Source of the DNA: Gemmatimonadaceae bacterium
GTDB lineage: Bacteria; Gemmatimonadota; Gemmatimonadetes; Gemmatimonadales; Gemmatimonadaceae
Assembly: GCA_041743285.1 (NCBI GenBank)
Contig: JBGTNB010000304.1
Location: 1 to 50,313, forward strand
Length of the DNA: 50,313 nt
Direction of reading: 5' to 3'
Shown here piece by piece: positions 250 to 39,780 of this stretch (its first letter is position 1; every line of letters starts with the position of its first letter). The position numbers and the translations under genes are program-made. The notes under the pieces are model-generated. The model was not told the DNA's origin and did no database searches. It saw only the letters and a list, made by a program, of their open reading frames with translations.

Positions 250-548
250 TCGCATGATTCTCGCGGCGCACGCCGTTTGAGGATTGCAACTGCTTTTTAC
301 CACGGAGGACACAGAGGACACAGAGGACAACAGAGTGAACGTCAGGAAGAACCTTGCAAAAGAGAACAACCATAGGACAATTGCGTTCACGCGCGAGTAG
401 CTAGGCACAGTGTTAATCACCTCCGTGACCTCTGTGTCCTCTGTGGTTAATTTGCTTTTCTTTCCTTTCACTATTCATTGTTTTCTTGTTCGTGTTGTCT
501 GCCCTCTTTCGCATTTCGGCCTTCGCATCTCGTATCTCGCATCTCGTA
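250..548. repeat. Hairpin element, uninterrupted copy: conserved 5-prime flank, 30-nt GAGGACACA-repeat arms, ~90-nt loop, ~60-nt conserved 3-prime flank, CGCATCT-type heptad tail
   Basis: Arms 299-328 (ACCACGGAGGACACAGAGGACACAGAGGAC) and 418-447 (CACCTCCGTGACCTCTGTGTCCTCTGTGGT) pair at about 25 of 30 positions. The segment aligns by eye at roughly 80-85 percent with 37296-37586 plus 39565-39633. Confidence 0.8.
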
Positions 549-32312: not shown

Positions 32313-32688
32313 GAGGCTCCGGGCGGACGGTGGCTGTCTGATCGGCCAACCTGCTCGCGTGGACCAGGGATGGCAAGACGGGATACTTCCCGCCCCCACG
32401 GCTTCTCGCTGTGCCAAGAACACGTCCTTGCTGAACTCGGGCGTGTGTTCCGGCGAATGCCCCTCATTCCGGCGAAAGCCGGAAATCCACAGGCGCAATG
32501 ATATGGGCCCGGTGTTCGCGTGTGAGACGGACGTAAAACGACTGGCGACGCGGGCGACGTCGCAAGACCCTGAAAGCGACATCCGGCGCGCAACGAGACC
32601 TCCGCTGCACACCGGCCGTACGGTGCTGATACCGGCCTCACGGGCCAGGCGATCGCGCCCGACCCGCTCGTACCTTCTCTCTCTGCAA

Positions 32689-33636
32689 TTACGAAAGGTC
32701 GTCGATGAAGAACGGTTGCACGATGGCCACCACCTGCGCCTTCGTAAGCGGCTCATCGAACGCTTCCGTCGCCGCCGCCGTCACGTCGATGCCACTCGGC
32801 AGGTTAGGCAGCATAGTGATGTTCACGCCGGCCTGCATGGTGTTTCCTTCGCCTTCATAGATGAGAGCGAAGGCGGCCACCGCACCTGCCGGCGGGTTCG
32901 TCAGGTTTCCTGCCCCGGCGGCTGCCGCGCCGCCGCCGGAAATGGTTCCACTGTACTTCACAACCGCCGGTGCGCCCGTCTGGCGCCGCAGCCGCCGGAT
33001 CTTCGACGCGTGGCGCGCTTCCACTGAGTGAATGCGCAGCGCGGCCTCGAGCACCACTGTGTTGGACATGAGGTTAGGCGCCTGCCCCTTGTACGCCCGG
33101 ACTCCAGTATCCTCCGCGCCTTGCGCCACCGCCAGCAGGTGATCCAGATCTGCGGTCGCCTGCGCGAACGGCCCGGTTCCTGACCCGCGGCCACCGGTGA
33201 AATCGAAGCTGTCGGCGTCGAGGTTGAGCGTGTTCACGGCTCCGTTGTTCAGGAGGAACTGCACGTGTTCCGCCTCGTGCTCCTGAATCTGCTGGAATGC
33301 AGGAAGCGCTGTGGCTGGCACCATGGCGCGGACGGCGGCGAACGCCGTGTTCTGTACCGCGGAGTCGCTCGTGCCGAGCACGGCCTTGTAAAACTCGTTT
33401 TCGAAAATCTCCAGCATGAGGGCGAAGTCTATCACGGCCTGTACATCTGCAGGCGTACCCTGCGCGAAAGCGTTGCGGCTGAGCGCCGCCAGCGCGACTG
33501 GAATGGATCCGAGCGCGAGCGCGGCTGCCACGCCGGAGCTCATCGCCGCGCCACGACCAATGGCTTCGCGCCGGGAGGCAATACGTTCAGTGATCTCCGG
33601 GTCGATGCCACCCAGGATCGTCATATCGTTCTGCAT
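32689..33636 (-). CDS. Ferritin-like domain protein with Tat-type signal
   Basis: 315 aa with SRREAIGRGAAMSSGVAAALALG and two ferritin-like helical halves (..FENEFYKAVLG.., ..RIHSVEARHASKIRRL..). Confidence 0.6.
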   Translation of the reverse strand: MQNDMTILGGIDPEITERIASRREAIGRGAAMSSGVAAALALGSIPVALAALSRNAFAQGTPADVQAVIDFALMLEIFENEFYKAVLGTSDSAVQNTAFAAVRAMVPATALPAFQQIQEHEAEHVQFLLNNGAVNTLNLDADSFDFTGGRGSGTGPFAQATADLDHLLAVAQGAEDTGVRAYKGQAPNLMSNTVVLEAALRIHSVEARHASKIRRLRRQTGAPAVVKYSGTISGGGAAAAGAGNLTNPPAGAVAAFALIYEGEGNTMQAGVNITMLPNLPSGIDVTAAATEAFDEPLTKAQVVAIVQPFFIDDLS

Positions 33637-33665
33637 GTAGTTCTCCTTCTCCTGTCTGCGTTAGG

Positions 33666-34469
33666 TCAGGGCGTCGGGTTCGGCGGACCAAAATCCGTCG
33701 TTCCCTGCCTGGTCGGTGGCTGCGTTCCGATGCTCACTTCCGTGGTGACGAAGTCCGTCGCGACCACGCGCGCAAGCACTGCCGCGGGTTCGAGTTTCAC
33801 ATCGAGACCGCTCGAGTTCACCACGTCGTCGCCAGCGAAGCGCGTTCCGGCCGGCGTTCCCGCGAGCCCGGCGCCCTCGCGCATGTCACGAATGGCCGCG
33901 GCGTGCCTCGCCTCGACCGAGACGATCTTTCCGGCTATTGTCAAAAGCGCCGGATCGGTGAGATACTTGCCCGCTCCATTGTACGCGGCTACTCCGAGGT
34001 CTTCGAACGCCTCGGACGTCTTAAGAATGGACGCCGTACTGGCCAGCGCGGCGGTCACCGTCGCCTGGTTGAGTGCGAGCGAATCGATTGCGTCGTCCCC
34101 CAATGCAGCCTTCAGGAACTCGCGATGGATAACTTCGTGATTGCGTAGGTCGGTGAACACTTCCTTTTGCTCGGCGTTCATGCCGTTGAAAGCCGCGGAA
34201 CCGACGACCGCCGCATAAAAACCCGCTTCCAGCTGCTCGAGTGCGTACGCGTAATTCAGAATGCCAGTGTCGTTGCCGAGGTTGAGCGTCACACCGCCGC
34301 CGCCCGGTGGCGGACGTACCGGATCATCGTCACTGCACGCGCCGAACACGGCCGGCAGCATCACTACTGTTCCGCCGACACCGAGTAGCCGCAGAAATTC
34401 GCGTCGCGTACCCGGATGCCACAGCTGTTCCGCCCGTTCTACGACGAGCGTGTCCTTCCGTTCTGCCAT
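33666..34469 (-). CDS. Ferritin-like domain lipoprotein with Tat-type signal
   Basis: ATG at 34469 is preceded by AGGAGG. Contains TRREFLRLLGVGGTVVMLPAVFGAC (Tat motif plus lipobox). It is a paralog of the downstream gene (..LEAGFYAAVVG.., ..IVSVEARHAAAIRDM..). Confidence 0.65.
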   Translation of the reverse strand: MAERKDTLVVERAEQLWHPGTRREFLRLLGVGGTVVMLPAVFGACSDDDPVRPPPGGGGVTLNLGNDTGILNYAYALEQLEAGFYAAVVGSAAFNGMNAEQKEVFTDLRNHEVIHREFLKAALGDDAIDSLALNQATVTAALASTASILKTSEAFEDLGVAAYNGAGKYLTDPALLTIAGKIVSVEARHAAAIRDMREGAGLAGTPAGTRFAGDDVVNSSGLDVKLEPAAVLARVVATDFVTTEVSIGTQPPTRQGTTDFGPPNPTP

Positions 34470-34791
34470 GGAACCCCTCCTGAATACAGGCGCTGCCGCG
34501 GACGTTCGCACGCCGCGAAGTTAGGTATTGCCCTCGCCACAGTAGGCCATCGCTGATAGGCTCCAAGCGGAACCCGTTGCGATTAGTGGCTAGGCAAAGG
34601 CAGAACCAATGCCACGCGCACTTCCGCCTACGCATTGAGATCACTTAGTCGGAAAAAATCCGCGAAGGCGAGCCAAAGTTCTTGATTCCTTGCGATATTG
34701 TGTCTCAGATGGTGCGGCTGACGCCGCTATCTGCTGCATTCGGATGCTGCAGAAAACTGCCGCACAGTTCACCGATGAGCACGGTAAGTGC

Positions 34792-35739
34792 ATGCGCGAC
34801 CACGTTGAGCCGTACAGGGCGATTCCAGTGAACAGAATACGAAAATCCGACATCGTGCGAACGCTTCGGCAGCGGATCCTTCGCGCGCTTCAGATCGGCG
34901 CGGTCACGCCAGGCGGGCGGCTGCCAAGCACCCGTGAGCTCGCCGCCGAGATGACGGTCGATGCTCGCGCGGTCGCCGCGGCCTATCGCGAGCTCGAGGC
35001 CGACGGGTTGGTCGAGATGCGCAGCAGATCCGGTGTTTTTGTGGCGGAAGCAGCAAAGACCTGGCGATCAAGGCCATTGCCTTCGGTACCATGGATGGCC
35101 GAAGTGCTCGCCGCGGGCATTGCGCGTGGTGTTCCGGTATCCGAGCTTTCGGAACTGTTTGCCGTGGCATTCGATCGCGGTCGGATTCGCGCGACAGTCA
35201 TCGCGACGTCGCGAGATCAGGCGGATGGCCTGCAACGCGAGCTGCAGGAGGATTTTGGTCTCGACGTGCGCACCGTACTCGGGGAGCTGATCGAGCCGCG
35301 GCGGCCGCTTCCTCGAGCGATTCACCGCGCTCATCTGCTCGTCTCTACCGAGGCGCTAGCAACCAAGGTCGGTGCTCTCGCGGCGCGACTCGGCAAGACA
35401 CACATCAAGCTTACCGTGCGCTTCGATCTTTTTGAGACGGAATGGGGCGCGCTGCGGGGGCTCGACGCTTTCGTGTTGGTGTCCGATGCCCGTTTCGGGA
35501 CCGACGTGCGAAATTATCTGGCCGGCGCCGGCGCGGCGGAACGGGTTCGCGTTCTGACGATAGGCATCGATGATCTTACCATGATTCCGCCTGACGCCAT
35601 AGTCTATGCGACCCAGGCGGCACGCAAGCATCTTGGACGCACGCGGATGCCGGCCGGTCTGCTGCCACCGGCAAGGGTGATATCCGAGCAGAGCGCCCGT
35701 GCCGTTCTCGAAGGAATGCTGAGTCTGCGACGACGTTAG
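34792..35739 (+). CDS. GntR-family transcriptional regulator
   Basis: HTH segment GGRLPSTRELAAEMTVDARAVAAAYRELEADGLVEMRSRSGVFV. The start is uncertain (34690, 34744 and 34792 are all in frame). Confidence 0.65.
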   Translation: MRDHVEPYRAIPVNRIRKSDIVRTLRQRILRALQIGAVTPGGRLPSTRELAAEMTVDARAVAAAYRELEADGLVEMRSRSGVFVAEAAKTWRSRPLPSVPWMAEVLAAGIARGVPVSELSELFAVAFDRGRIRATVIATSRDQADGLQRELQEDFGLDVRTVLGELIEPRRPLPRAIHRAHLLVSTEALATKVGALAARLGKTHIKLTVRFDLFETEWGALRGLDAFVLVSDARFGTDVRNYLAGAGAAERVRVLTIGIDDLTMIPPDAIVYATQAARKHLGRTRMPAGLLPPARVISEQSARAVLEGMLSLRRR

Positions 35740-35911
35740 GCAACCGCATCGGCCCGCCGCCGTATTTGCCGATAGGACCCCTGGCTAGCACATCCTGCTC
35801 GACCGTTGCAAGCAGTTGGGCACCGCTTCCGGGAACCTCTCGGGCCATTCGCGCGTAACTCGGAGCCATCATGAGTAACTTAGGAGTTGATCCATTCGTG
35901 AGAGGACCCAG

Positions 35912-36862
35912 ATGCAACTGCTCGGACTGCACCACGTCACCGCCATCTCGGCGCGTATTCGAGAGAATCACCGCTTCTACACAAAGACGCTTGGAATGCG
36001 GTTGGTAAAGCGTTCGGTAAACCAGGACGACGTGAGCGCGTACCACCTCTTTTACGCAGATGCGAAGGGGACGCCGGGAACCGATCTCACGTTCTTCGAC
36101 TGGCCGGTGCAGCCCGAGCGCCGGGGCACCCGGTCCATTACGCGAACTCATCTGCGCGTCAACGGGCTGAAAACGCTCGAGTGGTGGCGCCAACATCTGC
36201 CAGAACAAAATGTGCGAACCGGCGAGATCGTCGAGCGGGACGGCCGCCTGACGCTGGACTTCGAGGATGGAGAAGGGCAGCGCCTGTCGCTCATCGATGA
36301 TGGCGGTGCCGGTGAGTCGCAACCATGGTCGAAGAGTCCGGTACCCTCGGAGCATCAGGTGCGCGGTCTCGGACCGATCGTGCTCAGTGTGCCACTGCTT
36401 CGGCCGACCGACGTGATGCTTCAGCGAGCCGTCGCGATGAGTCCAGTACGCCAGTACGAGCATCCAGAGCATGCCGGGCATCAGATCCATGTCTATGAAA
36501 TGGGTGCCGGCGGTCCGCACGCCGAGGTCCACGTGGCGGTGCTCCCCGATCTGCCAGCGGCAGCGCAGGGCGCGGGCGGCGTGCACCATGTCGCTTTCCG
36601 GACCCCGACATTCGAGGAGTACGAGGCGTGGGTGGATCGGCTGGCCGAGCTCAAGGTGCCTAACAGCGGGCCGGTGGACCGTTACTGGTTCCGGAGCCTG
36701 TACTTTCGCGAGCCGAACGGGATTCTGTTCGAGATCGCTACCGACGGGCCCGGATTCGGTGTGGACGAGGATGAGGAGACGCTCGGCGAGAAGGTAGTGC
36801 TGGCGCCCTTTCTCGAGCCGGATCGTGAGCGAATCGTAGCCAACCTCGTGCCTATCGAGTGA
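35912..36862 (+). CDS. Ring-cleaving dioxygenase / two-domain VOC family protein (MhqO-like)
   Basis: N-terminus LGLHHVTAISARIRENHRFYTKTLGMRLVKRSVNQDD..YHLFYAD, with a second VOC repeat containing GGVHHVAFR. Confidence 0.75.
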   Translation: MQLLGLHHVTAISARIRENHRFYTKTLGMRLVKRSVNQDDVSAYHLFYADAKGTPGTDLTFFDWPVQPERRGTRSITRTHLRVNGLKTLEWWRQHLPEQNVRTGEIVERDGRLTLDFEDGEGQRLSLIDDGGAGESQPWSKSPVPSEHQVRGLGPIVLSVPLLRPTDVMLQRAVAMSPVRQYEHPEHAGHQIHVYEMGAGGPHAEVHVAVLPDLPAAAQGAGGVHHVAFRTPTFEEYEAWVDRLAELKVPNSGPVDRYWFRSLYFREPNGILFEIATDGPGFGVDEDEETLGEKVVLAPFLEPDRERIVANLVPIE

Positions 36863-36915
36863 TAAACGCGCGAAGTACCGCTGGCGGCCATTCGTCTCGT
36901 GTCTCTCTGACGAGG

Positions 36916-37278
36916 ATGCTCGCACGCGCGGCGCTGCTGCGGTGTCCAAGTTGTGGCGGGAACGGTATCCTGCGCCACTGGTTCAAGATGAGTGACGCCT
37001 GTCCGACCTGCGGCCTCACGCTCGATCGCGGAGAGTCGTCGGACTTCTGGCTGGGTGCGTATGCCTTGAACCTGGTGGTTGCCGAATTGATCACCGTCAT
37101 CGCTATCGTAGTGCGGATAGTGAGCGCGTGGCCGGACGTTCCATGGACGGCGGTGCAGTGGGTGGCGGTGATTCTCGCCGGGGGGATGCCTTTGCTGTTC
37201 TTTCCATTCGCCCGGACGGTATGGCTCGCTTTCGATCTTGGCATACGAAGGTCGGAGCCGGGCGATGTTCGGCGATAA
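36916..37278 (+). CDS. DUF983 family zinc-ribbon membrane protein
   Basis: CPSCGGNGIL..CPTCGL zinc ribbon followed by two hydrophobic helices. The ORF is open from GTG at 36859 (GTGA overlap with the dioxygenase), so the start is ambiguous. Confidence 0.6.
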   Translation: MLARAALLRCPSCGGNGILRHWFKMSDACPTCGLTLDRGESSDFWLGAYALNLVVAELITVIAIVVRIVSAWPDVPWTAVQWVAVILAGGMPLLFFPFARTVWLAFDLGIRRSEPGDVRR

Positions 37279-37586
37279 TTGCTGTCGGTCGTTCGCGATT
37301 CTGGCGGCGTGCGACATTCGAGGATTGCAACTGCTTTTCTACCGCGGAGGGCGCGGAGGCGCGCAGAGGGCTGCCGAGGAACTAGTGCGAGGGGGTACGA
37401 CCCGTGAGGCGTCAGGGTTTCTCTGCGTGTTTTTTTCACCACGGAGGACACAGAGGGCACAGAGGACAACAGAAAAATGAACATCAGGAAGAAACTTGCA
37501 AAACGGATACAACAATAGGACAGCTTCGTTCACGCGTGTGTAGCTAGGCACAGAATTAATCACCTCTGTGTCCTCTGTGTCCTCTG

Positions 37587-39564
37587 GTGCGTCAGGCCAA
37601 GCCTGACTGCTCTTGTGAAATGAAAGGAGTTCACCATGTGAAATGCCTATGACACATGTAGCAGCGCAGGCGGCGTTGCCGAGCAATCGGCGGGTCGAAG
37701 CCCTGCAATGCGAAGCGGTGAGCCGTAACGCGAGTGAACTCTCGTAGGCCTCGAAACACTAAGATGGAAGCGGCCAGCCCGCCAGAGAGGGTGAAGCCAG
37801 AACAGGCGATGGGAACATAGGCGAACAGTTGCCTGGCTTCCCGGGGTAAAGAGAGACGGCGCGTCGCGAGAGAGAAGTCGAGGAACCTGAGAGACCCGGC
37901 GTGCTTGGGGTCGTACCTCTGCAGGTGAGGATCGGAATGCATAACGGTTCGCGCTGCACGGCCGGGAGTCGGAGGGGGAGGTAGTAGCGGGGAAGCGTCG
38001 TAACGGACGTGGAGCGAAGCTCCCCTGCCGACAGAATGCGGAGTCAGAAACGTGGAGAGCCGATTGCGGAGAAAACCCGCCACGACGGAAGAATCGATGC
38101 CAGTGCAAATGCCCAAGGCCTTCGTGGTCAACGGCAAGCGCCTGCCCGTGAACCTCTTCACGCTGAGACAGAAGCTCTACGAGAAAGCGAAGCGAGAGCC
38201 GACGTTCCGGTTTTACACGCTGTATGGCCTGATCGCTCGGCTCGACGTGCTTGAGGCAGCTTGGGTCCTGGTCGCCGATAACGGCGGCGCGCCAGGGGTG
38301 GATGGGGTCACGATCGAGGAGATTGAGGCCACACCCAGCGGAGTGACAACACTGGTGGCGACATTGCGTCAGGAGTTGCTCACGAAGCAGTACAAGCCAC
38401 AGGCGGTGCGCCGGGTATTCATCCTTAAGGACAATGGCAAACGACGGCCGCTCGGAATCCCGACGGTTCGGGACCGAGTGGTGCAGGCGGCGGCTCGCCT
38501 CATCCTGGAACCGATCTTTGAAGCGGACTTCCTGGATGCGTCGTATGGCTATCGTCCGGGTCGAAAGGCCCACGAGGCGCTCGCCGCGATCGAGCGCAAC
38601 GTGAAGGAGGGATACGCGGAGATTTACGATGCAGACCTGCAAGCCTATTTCGACACGATCCCGCACGACAAACTGTTGCAGTGTGTCGAGCGGCGGGTGG
38701 CAGACCGATCGGTGCTGCGCCTGCTCCGTCAGTGGCTGGAAGCGCTGGTGGAGGATCGTGACGAGAACGGACGGCCGAAGCGGAGCCGCCCGACCCAAGG
38801 GATCGGGACGCCACAGGGCGGAGTGATTTCCCCCCTGTTGGCGAATCTGTACCTGCACTGGTTCGATGTGAGGTTTCATCGGCAGCACGGTCCAGGCACG
38901 TGGGCGAAAGCCCGGCTGGTCCGCTACGCCGACGACTTCGTGATCATGGCGAAGTACATCGGGGATCGAATACCGGCGTGGGTGGAGGCAACGACCGAAG
39001 GGTGGCTTGGCCTTACGATCAATCGCGAGAAGACCCGGATCGTGCGGCTCGGACCGGAACACGGAGAGGGAACGGAGCGACTCGACTTTCTCGGCTACAC
39101 GTTTCGGTATGACTGGGATCGCTATGGGCGAGGGACGCGCTACTTCACGGCGGTTCCCTCGGCCAAAGCGCTCGCTCGGATGCAAGACGAACTACGGGCA
39201 CTGATCAGCAGTCGGCAGAACTACACACCGATACCGCACCTGATCAAGCGTGTGAATCGCAAGCTCCGAGGCTGGCAGAACTACTTCAGCTTTGGCCATC
39301 CGCGAGGTGCCTACCGAGTGATGAATGCCTTCGTAATCGCTAGACTGACGCGCCACCTACAACGTCGGAGTCAACGCCCCTGCTGTCCGCCGGCAGACAT
39401 GTCGTGGTATGGCTTCATCACCGGTCAACTGGGATTGCAGCCGCTCACGATGCGTGCAGCTCCTCGATAGTGCTCTTGTGAATCTGTCGGGAAAGCCGGA
39501 TGCGGGAAATCCGCCAGTCCGGTTTGACGAGGGGGACCTAACTTCGGTTAGGTCCCTACTCTAC
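37587..39564 (+). mobile_element. Complete group II intron (1978 nt), endonuclease-less, class C-like by insertion behaviour
   Basis: GTGCG at 37587-37591. Domain V-like AAGCCGGATGCGGGAAATCCGCCAGTCCGGTTT at 39493-39525 (AGC triad, GAAA loop). Domain VI-like GGGACCTAAC-TTCG-GTTAGGTCCC at 39533-39556, with an unpaired A at 39558, 7th nt from the 3-prime end (..CTAC at 39564). Removing the segment restores the sequence seen at 438-449. Confidence 0.85.
38052..39470 (+). CDS. Group II intron reverse transcriptase/maturase (no HNH endonuclease domain)
   Basis: RPLGIPTVRDRVVQ, YADDFVIM (YxDD) and the maturase X region RGWQNYFSFG. The C-terminus has no CxxC/HNH. An alternative ATG lies at 38097. 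Confidence 0.9.
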   Translation: MESRLRRKPATTEESMPVQMPKAFVVNGKRLPVNLFTLRQKLYEKAKREPTFRFYTLYGLIARLDVLEAAWVLVADNGGAPGVDGVTIEEIEATPSGVTTLVATLRQELLTKQYKPQAVRRVFILKDNGKRRPLGIPTVRDRVVQAAARLILEPIFEADFLDASYGYRPGRKAHEALAAIERNVKEGYAEIYDADLQAYFDTIPHDKLLQCVERRVADRSVLRLLRQWLEALVEDRDENGRPKRSRPTQGIGTPQGGVISPLLANLYLHWFDVRFHRQHGPGTWAKARLVRYADDFVIMAKYIGDRIPAWVEATTEGWLGLTINREKTRIVRLGPEHGEGTERLDFLGYTFRYDWDRYGRGTRYFTAVPSAKALARMQDELRALISSRQNYTPIPHLIKRVNRKLRGWQNYFSFGHPRGAYRVMNAFVIARLTRHLQRRSQRPCCPPADMSWYGFITGQLGLQPLTMRAAPR

Positions 39565-39780
39565 TGGTCAATTCGTTTTGCTTCCTTTCCCTGTTCATTG
39601 TCTTTCTCGTCCGTCGTCGTCTCCCCGCTCCTGCCCTCTGCGCTCCTCTGCGCACCCTGCGGTGAAGATTGCGGAGACTGGGCTGCAGCGAATCGAGTTC
39701 GGCGGTATCCAGACACAGTTAGACAGGCAGATTGATGGCCGGTTGGCCTTGACGGCCCGTCCGTTCGTCTGAAATGCAAT

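Follow-up and report, generated by a model that had tools for sequence, protein, structure and literature searches.

The described systems nearest to the repeat analysed here are the REP/REPIN-RAYT systems and the heptameric intergenic repeats of Xanthomonas and Nostoc. In the REP/REPIN-RAYT systems of Proteobacteria, RAYT is a Y1 HUH transposase and the palindromes carry a free GTAG. The intervening sequences of 23S rRNA (Pfam 23S_rRNA_IVP) are located within rRNA, contain an open reading frame (ORF) for a four-helix-bundle protein, and are excised by RNase III. The heptameric G-rich repeats (GGGNATC) of Xanthomonas and Nostoc have been described together with the cyanobacterial STRR (Rehm et al. 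2015, PMC4692102). Here, we analysed a contig of 50,313 nucleotides (JBGTNB010000304.1, hereafter the window) from a Gemmatimonadaceae metagenome-assembled genome (MAG) of 3.68 Mb in 641 contigs and 61% completeness (G000). A preliminary description of the window had pointed to a non-coding element of approximately 300 nt that occurs twice, 37 kb apart, and had proposed that it is a structured RNA or a non-autonomous mobile element. Our analysis indicates that the hairpin at its core is probably a member of a dispersed family of palindromes built from tandem nonamers, some of which carry a GxxExxY gene; since the gene-bearing members share the arm types, the gene-less hairpins are best read as their non-autonomous or decayed relatives.

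Like REP, BIME and REPIN sequences, the nonamer hairpins are short intergenic palindromes present in tens to hundreds per genome, often as inverted pairs that form a long hairpin, and a few copies bracket a small gene for a presumed mobilising enzyme while most are gene-less. Unlike them, the arms are tandem 9-mers with paired CCAC/GTGG instead of an imperfect palindrome with an unpaired 5′ GTAG, one arm sequence is common to several phyla and an archaeon, the loops, of 2 to >250 nt, are for the most part unrelated to each other, and the bracketed gene encodes a GxxExxY nuclease of the PD-(D/E)XK type, not a Y1 transposase; no Y1_Tnp (PF01797) match was found in the 61% complete G000. Terminal inverted repeats around a short non-coding interior, an intergenic location, long RNA/DNA hairpins, and a presence that differs between close relatives are shared with miniature inverted-repeat transposable elements (MITEs) such as Correia of Neisseria and ERIC, with the reservation that the hairpin core has terminal inverted repeats and the 300-nt unit as a whole does not. 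In contrast to MITEs, the bases outside the arms are complementary with no target-site duplication seen, the interior is not conserved within the family, and we know of no DDE transposase parent for the nonamer hairpins. The gene-bearing elements share the hairpin ends and encode a PD-(D/E)XK nuclease, a protein that may or may not have transposase-like activity. With the heptameric repeats (PMC4692102), the family shares intergenic tandem units of 7–9 nt that are enriched near gene ends and fewer between divergent genes, but its unit is 9 nt and not prone to form G-quadruplexes (G4), its anchor is fixed, its arms are pairwise matched, and a nuclease gene is associated with it. The window and its relatives also hold GGGAATC-type arrays as inverted pairs, and nonamer and heptamer hairpins swap for each other at orthologous sites; however, the heptamer hairpins of G000 bracket 23S_rRNA_IVP genes rather than nuclease genes. 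The long inverted-repeat stem with a small ORF in the loop also recalls the 23S rRNA intervening sequences, from which the nonamer hairpins differ in being intergenic.

The family arm consists of a T-run, the anchor CCAC and (RGAGGNCRC)n, and is followed by a loop and the inverse arm. In the first copy of the studied element (copy 1), the anchor and at least 2.5 tandem 9-mers with a mirrored inverse arm are found at 300–328 / 420–446, and the arms reach outward as a T-run and CCAC on the left and as GTGG and TTAA on the right. The GAGGACACA arms are not private to the two copies, as a search with the 25-mer GGAGGACACAGAGGACACAGAGGAC (≤4 mismatches) gave 33 matches on 22 contigs of G000. These resolve to ∼20 hairpins, all intergenic, with a T-run or TTGAA, CCAC, two to three RGAGGACAC units, a loop of 40–250 nt, and an inverse arm that ends in GTGG followed by TTCAA or TAAAA. 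Both neighbouring genes were called for 11 hairpins, of which 4 lie between convergent, 6 between tandem and 1 between divergent genes. Their loops are mostly unrelated, with three pairs in G000 sharing one: the two studied copies, C455/C542 and C244/C456. The hairpins at C455:895–1070 and C542:4560–4745 (reverse) share the loop, at ∼85% identity, plus 20–30 nt past each arm, and duplicated units that exceed the hairpin may be common. At C456:31448–31598, a contig end, a left GAGGACACA arm and a GAGGAA spacer are followed by the start of an ORF (MNENANVLMDVDACLQFHALVMILSEHAWCDVTTA…) with no Pfam match, which runs off the contig and has a frameshifted paralogue at C244:4420–4605; it may be another type of cargo gene.

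Beyond G000, the motif was found in 6 of 40 related genomes (three of the same genus, three of other genera of the family), with none for the reversed control. When 185,579 species genomes were scanned for exact matches to CCACRGAGGNCRCRGAGGNCRCRGAGG, at least 120 stretches in many phyla were obtained, and among the matches listed are Acidobacteriota, Burkholderiales, Gemmatimonadota, Planctomycetota, Bacteroides, Nostoc/Microcoleus, Myxococcota, Chloroflexota, Thermoplasmata and Methanocellaceae. Twelve distant genomes from that scan hold 25–292 arms each, compared to 0–3 for the reversed control. The arm family is thus notable both for its copy number, up to hundreds per genome, and for a sequence that is nearly constant across Gemmatimonadota, Burkholderiales, Acidobacteriota, Bacteroides, cyanobacteria and Thermoplasmata. 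In the cyanobacteria Nostoc and Cronbergia (L009, L051, L073, L080, L115 and L122), a single arm stands in a ACGGAAAATCGAA-CCACAGAGGACGCAGAGGACACAGAGGAATAAGAGTTTGAGAGGTTTTTTGCGTAAGTCCTA context, which recurs between cyanobacterial genomes and looks like a distinct conserved element.

Across 69 hairpins with an exact anchor, the left CCAC pairs with the right GTGG in every case, and the Watson–Crick fractions at the variable arm positions were 0.97, 0.86, 0.78 and 0.77, compared to 0.69, 0.54, 0.53 and 0.51 with shuffled partners. The three bases outside the anchor covary as well, and the positions flanking the arms are complementary rather than directly repeated (e.g. TCA/TGA, GAA/TTC). Such matching of the arms could reflect either selective maintenance of pairing or the copying of one arm with the other as template. 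An all-against-all blastn comparison of the loops of ∼60 nt or longer among 106 collected hairpins gave small clusters within closely related genomes only, with no loop homology across phyla. In the source hot-spring metagenome, the summed contig depth of the arms rises to 200–400, with the unique sequence of the organism near 11. By run, the summed depth over the arms (265–352, 397–484) was 120–420 in X1/X2 and 23–60 in X3/X4, with a unique-flank depth of ∼11 and 2–4, respectively, and many alternative short loops join the arms. The high summed depth and the many loops therefore indicate that the arm motif is abundant throughout the hot-spring community. No description of the nonamer hairpin family was found in Rfam or in the literature searched, including a search for ‘nonanucleotide repeats’ with Geobacter.

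The association with a nuclease gene was seen by tblastn of G000 proteins against arm-selected loci, which returned a GxxExxY ORF in locus L003 of genome G007. There, CCACAGAGGTYAC-type arms enclose a 129-aa PDDEXK_3 ORF (PF13366, E = 3.6e-40), whose ATG lies 9 nt past the last GGAGGA unit and whose stop lies 6 nt before the right arm. Within the genus of the window, a GxxExxY gene is located between CCAC GAGGCCAC/GAGGACAC arms in G002 (L176) and between CCGC GAGGACGCG/GAGGGGCGC arms in G004 (L173), the latter being the type of the outer arm of copy 2 described below. Further gene-bearing members with the same arm type are L174 (G007) and, in other phyla, L169, L177, L180, L192 and L194. We surveyed the 170-nt flanks of 31 GxxExxY genes from 12 genomes, 11 of which had been picked as arm-rich. 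An exact inverted repeat of ≥10 nt flanks 26 of the 31 genes, and one of ≥12 nt flanks 19, compared to 5.8% and 0.5% of random 350-nt windows. Most of these repeats are tandem 9-mer arms, and the CCAC-RGAGGNCRC type surrounds at least nine genes in Deltaproteobacteria, Burkholderiales and Gemmatimonadota. Beside GAGGACAC arms at G012:C153 and G033:C35, there are GxxExxY remnants with frameshifts or stops, which resemble transitional forms between hairpins with and without a gene. The PDB returned no sequence relative for the arm-flanked nuclease, and GxxExxY has only a passing mention in the literature searched.

G000 itself holds one GxxExxY (TIGR04256) gene, located at C449:234–1089 between 35-nt non-tandem inverted repeats (GGATGCATCAGGATTGAACGGATCAAATGGATTTG), and three loci matching the four-helix-bundle family 23S_rRNA_IVP. 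A GGATGCATCAGGATTGAACGGATCAAATGGATTTG-type repeat also abuts an isolated GAGGACRCG right arm at C115:2340–2611. The three IVP genes (C133:2974–3288, C362:1935–2248 and C182:7398–7637) are each located between inverted heptamer arrays, of the GGAATTA, GCGGGAT and GCGAGNT types, the C362 copy consisting of two frames with stops.

The family resembles selfish repeat DNA in its behaviour. Judging from these sequences, the gene-less hairpins would be kept or copied at the DNA level in a REPIN- or MITE-like manner, and the association suggests that the family may spread with the help of the nuclease encoded by the gene-bearing members. We consider more tentatively, and with somewhat more doubt than belief, that the nonamer hairpins and the GxxExxY PD-(D/E)XK nuclease form an undescribed two-part mobile or homing system of many bacterial phyla and some archaea. 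In such a system, the nuclease would recognise the 9-mer arm or the extruded hairpin, and the last GGAGGA arm unit would be the ribosome-binding site of the nuclease gene. Gene-less hairpins such as 294–450 would be mobilised in trans or be decayed gene-bearing copies, and the hairpins would act as recombination hot spots, of which copy 1, an operon-bracketing duplication in G004, a group II intron insertion and an ISL3 insertion (all described below) could be examples. If the nuclease link is causal, it would provide a function for the GxxExxY family and extend the REP/RAYT paradigm, in which palindromes are domesticated or selfish, to a second class of enzymes.

Several observations weigh against placing the studied hairpin among relatives of nuclease-bearing elements. 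The link between nuclease and hairpin is an association, with no mobilisation observed. No cognate nuclease for the GAGGACACA arms was found in the 61% complete G000, whose single GxxExxY gene has different, non-tandem inverted repeats, and 15 of the 34 related genomes without this arm type have GxxExxY genes. The 5′ leader of the element, at 84–95% identity among its copies, is more conserved than neutral sequence should be. A target-site duplication is not demonstrable at copy 1, where the flanking TTCGCAT may be the heptamer period. Finally, the similarity of the loop to GxxExxY gene ends is not significant after multiple testing: the loop was examined as an internally deleted GxxExxY gene, and this candidate was rejected with gene-end alignments of p = 0.006–0.04 at best in 32 tests. 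All four copies, two in the window and two in G004, have an ATG/GTG-AAC start 6–9 nt past the last GAGGRC unit, and a 13-codon ORF of copy 2 ends in KRIQQ before its stop, which may be compared with KRLING and KRMVNNF before the stops of real GxxExxY genes; the reading frames of the loop are broken by indels between copies. Derivation of the loop from such a gene is offered as a suggestion only.

To relate the hairpin to the 300-nt unit, we delimited the parts of copy 1 and its surroundings, which are as follows.

1–185, + strand: 3′ end of an ISL3-family insertion sequence, with the transposase C-terminus at 1–144 and the terminal repeat ending near 185.
186–255, unstranded: remnant of an ancestral heptamer-armed hairpin (loop and start of the (CATTTCG)n right arm), ending in TTCGCAT (249–255).
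256–293, + strand: 5′ leader of copy 1, GATTCTCGCGGCG...GAGGATTGCAACTGC, 84–92% identical to copy 2 and the G004 copies.
294–328, + strand: left arm, TTTTTA + CCAC + GGAGGACAC AGAGGACAC AGAGGAC, from sequence and family matches.
329–417, unstranded: loop of 89 nt, 85% identical to copy 2 and 61–62% to the G004 copies.
418–450, + strand: right arm, CACCTCCGTGACCTCTGTGTCCTCTGTGG + TTAA, part of the very stable hairpin 290–460.
451–507, + strand: T-rich 3′ flank, at whose end (507) homology with copy 2 stops in blastn.
508–548, unstranded: ancestral heptamer array of TTCGCAT / CGCATCT units outside the repeat, with an orthologous array in G003.
577–1911, + strand: Gfo/Idh/MocA oxidoreductase gene (PF01408, PF19051) downstream of copy 1.

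The corresponding parts at copy 2 are as follows.

36859–37278, + strand: DUF983 gene upstream of copy 2, an ORF whose G004 orthologue matches PF06170.
37297–37334, + strand: 5′ leader of copy 2, from alignment with copy 1.
37335–37371, + strand: outer left arm, TTTTCTA + CCGC + GGAGGGCGC GGAGGCGCGC AGAGGGC, which pairs with 39630–39664 and is not in copy 1.
37372–37429, + strand: spacer or inner leader (…CCGTGAGGCGTCAGGG…), not in copy 1.
37430–37467, + strand: inner left arm, from sequence and family matches.
37468–37560, unstranded: loop, from alignment with copy 1.
37561–37586, + strand: part of the right arm that precedes the intron, from sequence.
37587–39564, + strand: group II intron with a reverse transcriptase/maturase ORF, within the right arm (RF02005, RF00029; RVT_1 and GIIM).
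39565–39629, + strand: rest of the right arm (TGGTCAAT) and T-rich 3′ flank, from blastn and alignment.
39630–39664, + strand: outer right arm, CCTGCCCTCTGCGCTCCTCTGCGCACCCTGCGGTG, complementary to 37335–37371 and conserved in G004 copy B.

By blastn, 249–507 is paralogous to 37292–37586 plus 39565–39629, which bears out the report of two copies 37 kb apart: 294–507 matches 37433–37586 plus 39565–39629 at 84% over ∼220 nt, and 249–326 matches 37292–37369 at 80%. By segment, the identity is 84% in the 5′ leader, 94% in the left arm, 85% in the loop, 90% in the right arm and 72% in the T-rich 3′ flank. The extent given for copy 1 was too long, as 508–548 lies beyond the end of homology. The position of copy 2 downstream of the DUF983 gene is correct, with the copy beginning 20 nt past the DUF983 stop, and so is the non-coding assignment, the antisense ORFs having no Pfam match and running through the low-complexity arms. 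The last 12–15 nt of the leader, GCAACNGCYTTT, also precede CCAC/CCGC arms in other Gemmatimonadota MAGs and the arms of the GxxExxY-bearing element L183 in G004, so that part of the ‘flank’ is a lineage-typical arm extension.

Copy 2 contains an extra block of ∼97 nt (37337–37432), made up of a sister-type GAGGGCGCG outer left arm and the spacer, which copy 1 is without; blastn pairs the spacer (37372–37429) at 76.7% with sequence preceding the hairpin arm on C599. The inner and outer arm sets both fit the definition of an anchor plus tandem 9-mers, and since the outer arm has its partner at 39630–39664, copy 2 consists of one hairpin inside the loop of a second. It is also the resident locus. 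The only orthologous locus found, in G004 (same genus), carries the leader, outer arm, spacer and inner hairpin as well, immediately behind its DUF983 gene, and the group II intron landed in the nested copy 2 later.

Copy 1, in contrast, is a secondary copy of 252 nt (256–507) located in a heptamer array, and spans the first leader base to the base preceding the outer right arm, without the outer left arm and spacer. The orthologous Gfo/Idh/MocA genes of G003 (87% identical) and G002 (79%) have upstream of them an uninterrupted heptamer-armed hairpin, which sits after a transporter gene. The window becomes collinear with G003 once copy 1 is deleted, and removal of 256–507 joins …GCGCATTTCGCAT to TTCGCATTTCGG… into a perfect (GCATTTC)3 array. 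Given the uninterrupted array in G003 and G002 and the restored (GCATTTC)3, copy 1 is an insertion. With 250–506 taken out, 186–255 can be aligned to G003:C322 in front of the orthologue of the oxidoreductase gene, and G002 carries (GATTCCC)n where the window has the 508–548 array. The 7 nt TTCGCAT flank copy 1 on both sides and equal the array period, so they may be a target duplication or merely that period. The contig begins within the ISL3 element (PF01610 DDE_Tnp_ISL3, E 6.6e-9, at the window start), and the sequence from 186 on aligns with the G003 intergenic region; this ISL3 end is a separate insertion into the left half of the same old heptamer hairpin.

G004 carries two copies of the region. 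Copy A runs from the DUF983 3′ end through part of the loop, copy B comprises the final 50 nt of DUF983 and the entire element, and together they bracket 13.3 kb (L149, G004:C395, 2540–15808) absent from the window, with genes for a TonB-dependent receptor, three DUF4876/CarboxypepD_reg proteins and one DUF6850 protein. This duplication in G004 is independent of the one in G000 and has other end points. In agreement with separate events, the two loops of one genome resemble each other more (85% in G000, 73% in G004) than loops of different genomes do (61–66%). With two copies only, no terminal inverted repeats of its own and different end points in G004, the 300-nt unit is not itself the mobile unit but the product of a single duplication of a locus with nested hairpins. 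The earlier proposal of a mobile element thus survives for the hairpin core, which belongs to a dispersed multi-phylum repeat family and, at copy 1, is inserted relative to sister genomes, but not for the unit as a whole. Because the end points differ and inverted termini are absent, we read the duplications as recombination or repair, which could have proceeded by break repair or template switching at palindromic or short-repeat DNA rather than by transposition of a defined 300-nt element. A deletion between two similar left-arm starts (CTTTTCTACCGCGGAGG / TTTTTCACCACGGAGG) would have stripped the outer arm and spacer from copy 1.

An integrative island with the element as its attachment site was also considered and rejected, as no integrase or transposase was found in the 13-kb G004 insert. 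The 5′ leader and the downstream sequence do not form a third-level palindrome, their complementarity being at chance level (p = 0.36–0.82). For an inversion between the arms (inverton), no strand-switch joint is listed in the assembled contigs of four DNA runs. Between otherwise collinear genes, G000 has ∼3.4 kb that G004 lacks (window 32329–35912 versus L149 713–908). A comparison with congeners covered four further hairpin sites of G000: the C303 hairpin is conserved including its loop, the left nonamer arm at C138 is replaced by a heptamer array in G004 with heptamers only in G001, heptamer hairpins stand in place of the nonamer hairpin of C59, and the C352 hairpin is absent.

Other explanations would assign the element a different role. 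An action of the hairpin in RNA, as a 3′-end or terminator-like or mRNA-stabilising structure in the manner of REP/BIME, is unlikely but retains some weight, and could coexist with a selfish origin. The hairpins are all intergenic, 10 of the 11 with both neighbours called have one or both of these genes ending toward them, copy 2 follows closely on the DUF983 stop, and the stems are very stable: the whole hairpin 290–460 folds at −66.9 kcal/mol (z = −6.0 versus shuffles), a stability that is due to the arms. However, a terminator scan found no intrinsic terminator in 150–650, and the T-run precedes the left arm while an A-rich run trails the right arm, the reverse of a terminator. In addition, copy 1 is upstream of its neighbouring gene, and orthologous congener sites have heptamer arrays or nothing.

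That the whole 250–300-nt unit is a non-autonomous transposon (MITE), mobilised in trans by, for example, the neighbouring ISL3 element, seems highly improbable. The clean insertion of copy 1 between two TTCGCAT, the ISL3 end 70 nt away and the 20–30 nt past the arms shared by the C455/C542 pair would agree with it. ISL3 elements generate 8-bp target duplications, whereas the 7-bp repeat at copy 1 corresponds to the array period. The ends of the unit are not inverted repeats of each other and differ from ISL3 ends, only two copies exist, and the duplicated segment of G004 has other end points.

The structured-RNA proposal fares worst. The fold of the 90-nt loop alone is no more stable than those of shuffled sequences (z = −0.5 and +0.5 for the two strands). 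The second stem proposed within it comprises 7 bp in copy 1 and five in copy 2, but it is absent from the + strand minimum-energy fold and is not a conserved structure: the G004 pair retains 4 and 2 of the 7 pairs, and among the four copies compared no compensatory (double) change was found, so pairs are lost without covariation. Between G000 and G004, the flanking genes are 88–92% identical and the loop 61–66% with several indels, a divergence that is roughly neutral. No Rfam match was found in 150–620 even at E ≤ 10; at the gathering score only the group II intron domains match in the window, and 16 related loci gave nothing besides a tRNA. No RNA run containing the stretch was found. A structured small RNA gene, perhaps doubling as an integration site for gene cassettes, accords with the non-coding segment, the conserved 5′ leader and the direct repeats that bracket the inserted G004 operon as tRNA/tmRNA attachment sites do, but is largely refuted, and the structured-RNA reading rejected on present evidence, by the unstructured and diverging loop, the uncompensated decay of its stem, the Rfam result, the 13-kb insert without an integrase and the lack of any promoter-like site found. 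On its own, the studied element is ordinary repeat DNA that was duplicated once and should not be followed up as a new RNA.

Returning to the hairpins as a dispersed repeat family, we note that they break assemblies, many being located at contig ends, that they attract introns and insertion sequences, and that they mark sites of gene-cassette turnover. The leader, loop and T-rich flank have no third site by blastn in the 3.68-Mb assembly. At copy 2, a complete group II intron interrupts the right arm between CCTCTG and TGGTCAAT, and the intron-less joint (37586>39565) occurs in metagenome contigs of run X1 at a depth of 13.8, compared to 8–12 for the intron-containing contigs. As both joint types are present in X1, the intron is polymorphic in the population, or the intron-less joint comes from a close strain. 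Other intron copies or ends, 80–91% identical, are found in G000 at C147:7014–8359, C522:26–139 and C188:5499–5612, where they sit in the arms of a second nonamer hairpin family, CCGC AGATTTCGC AGATTTCGC …; repeat arms in general seem to be the targets into which this intron lineage homes.

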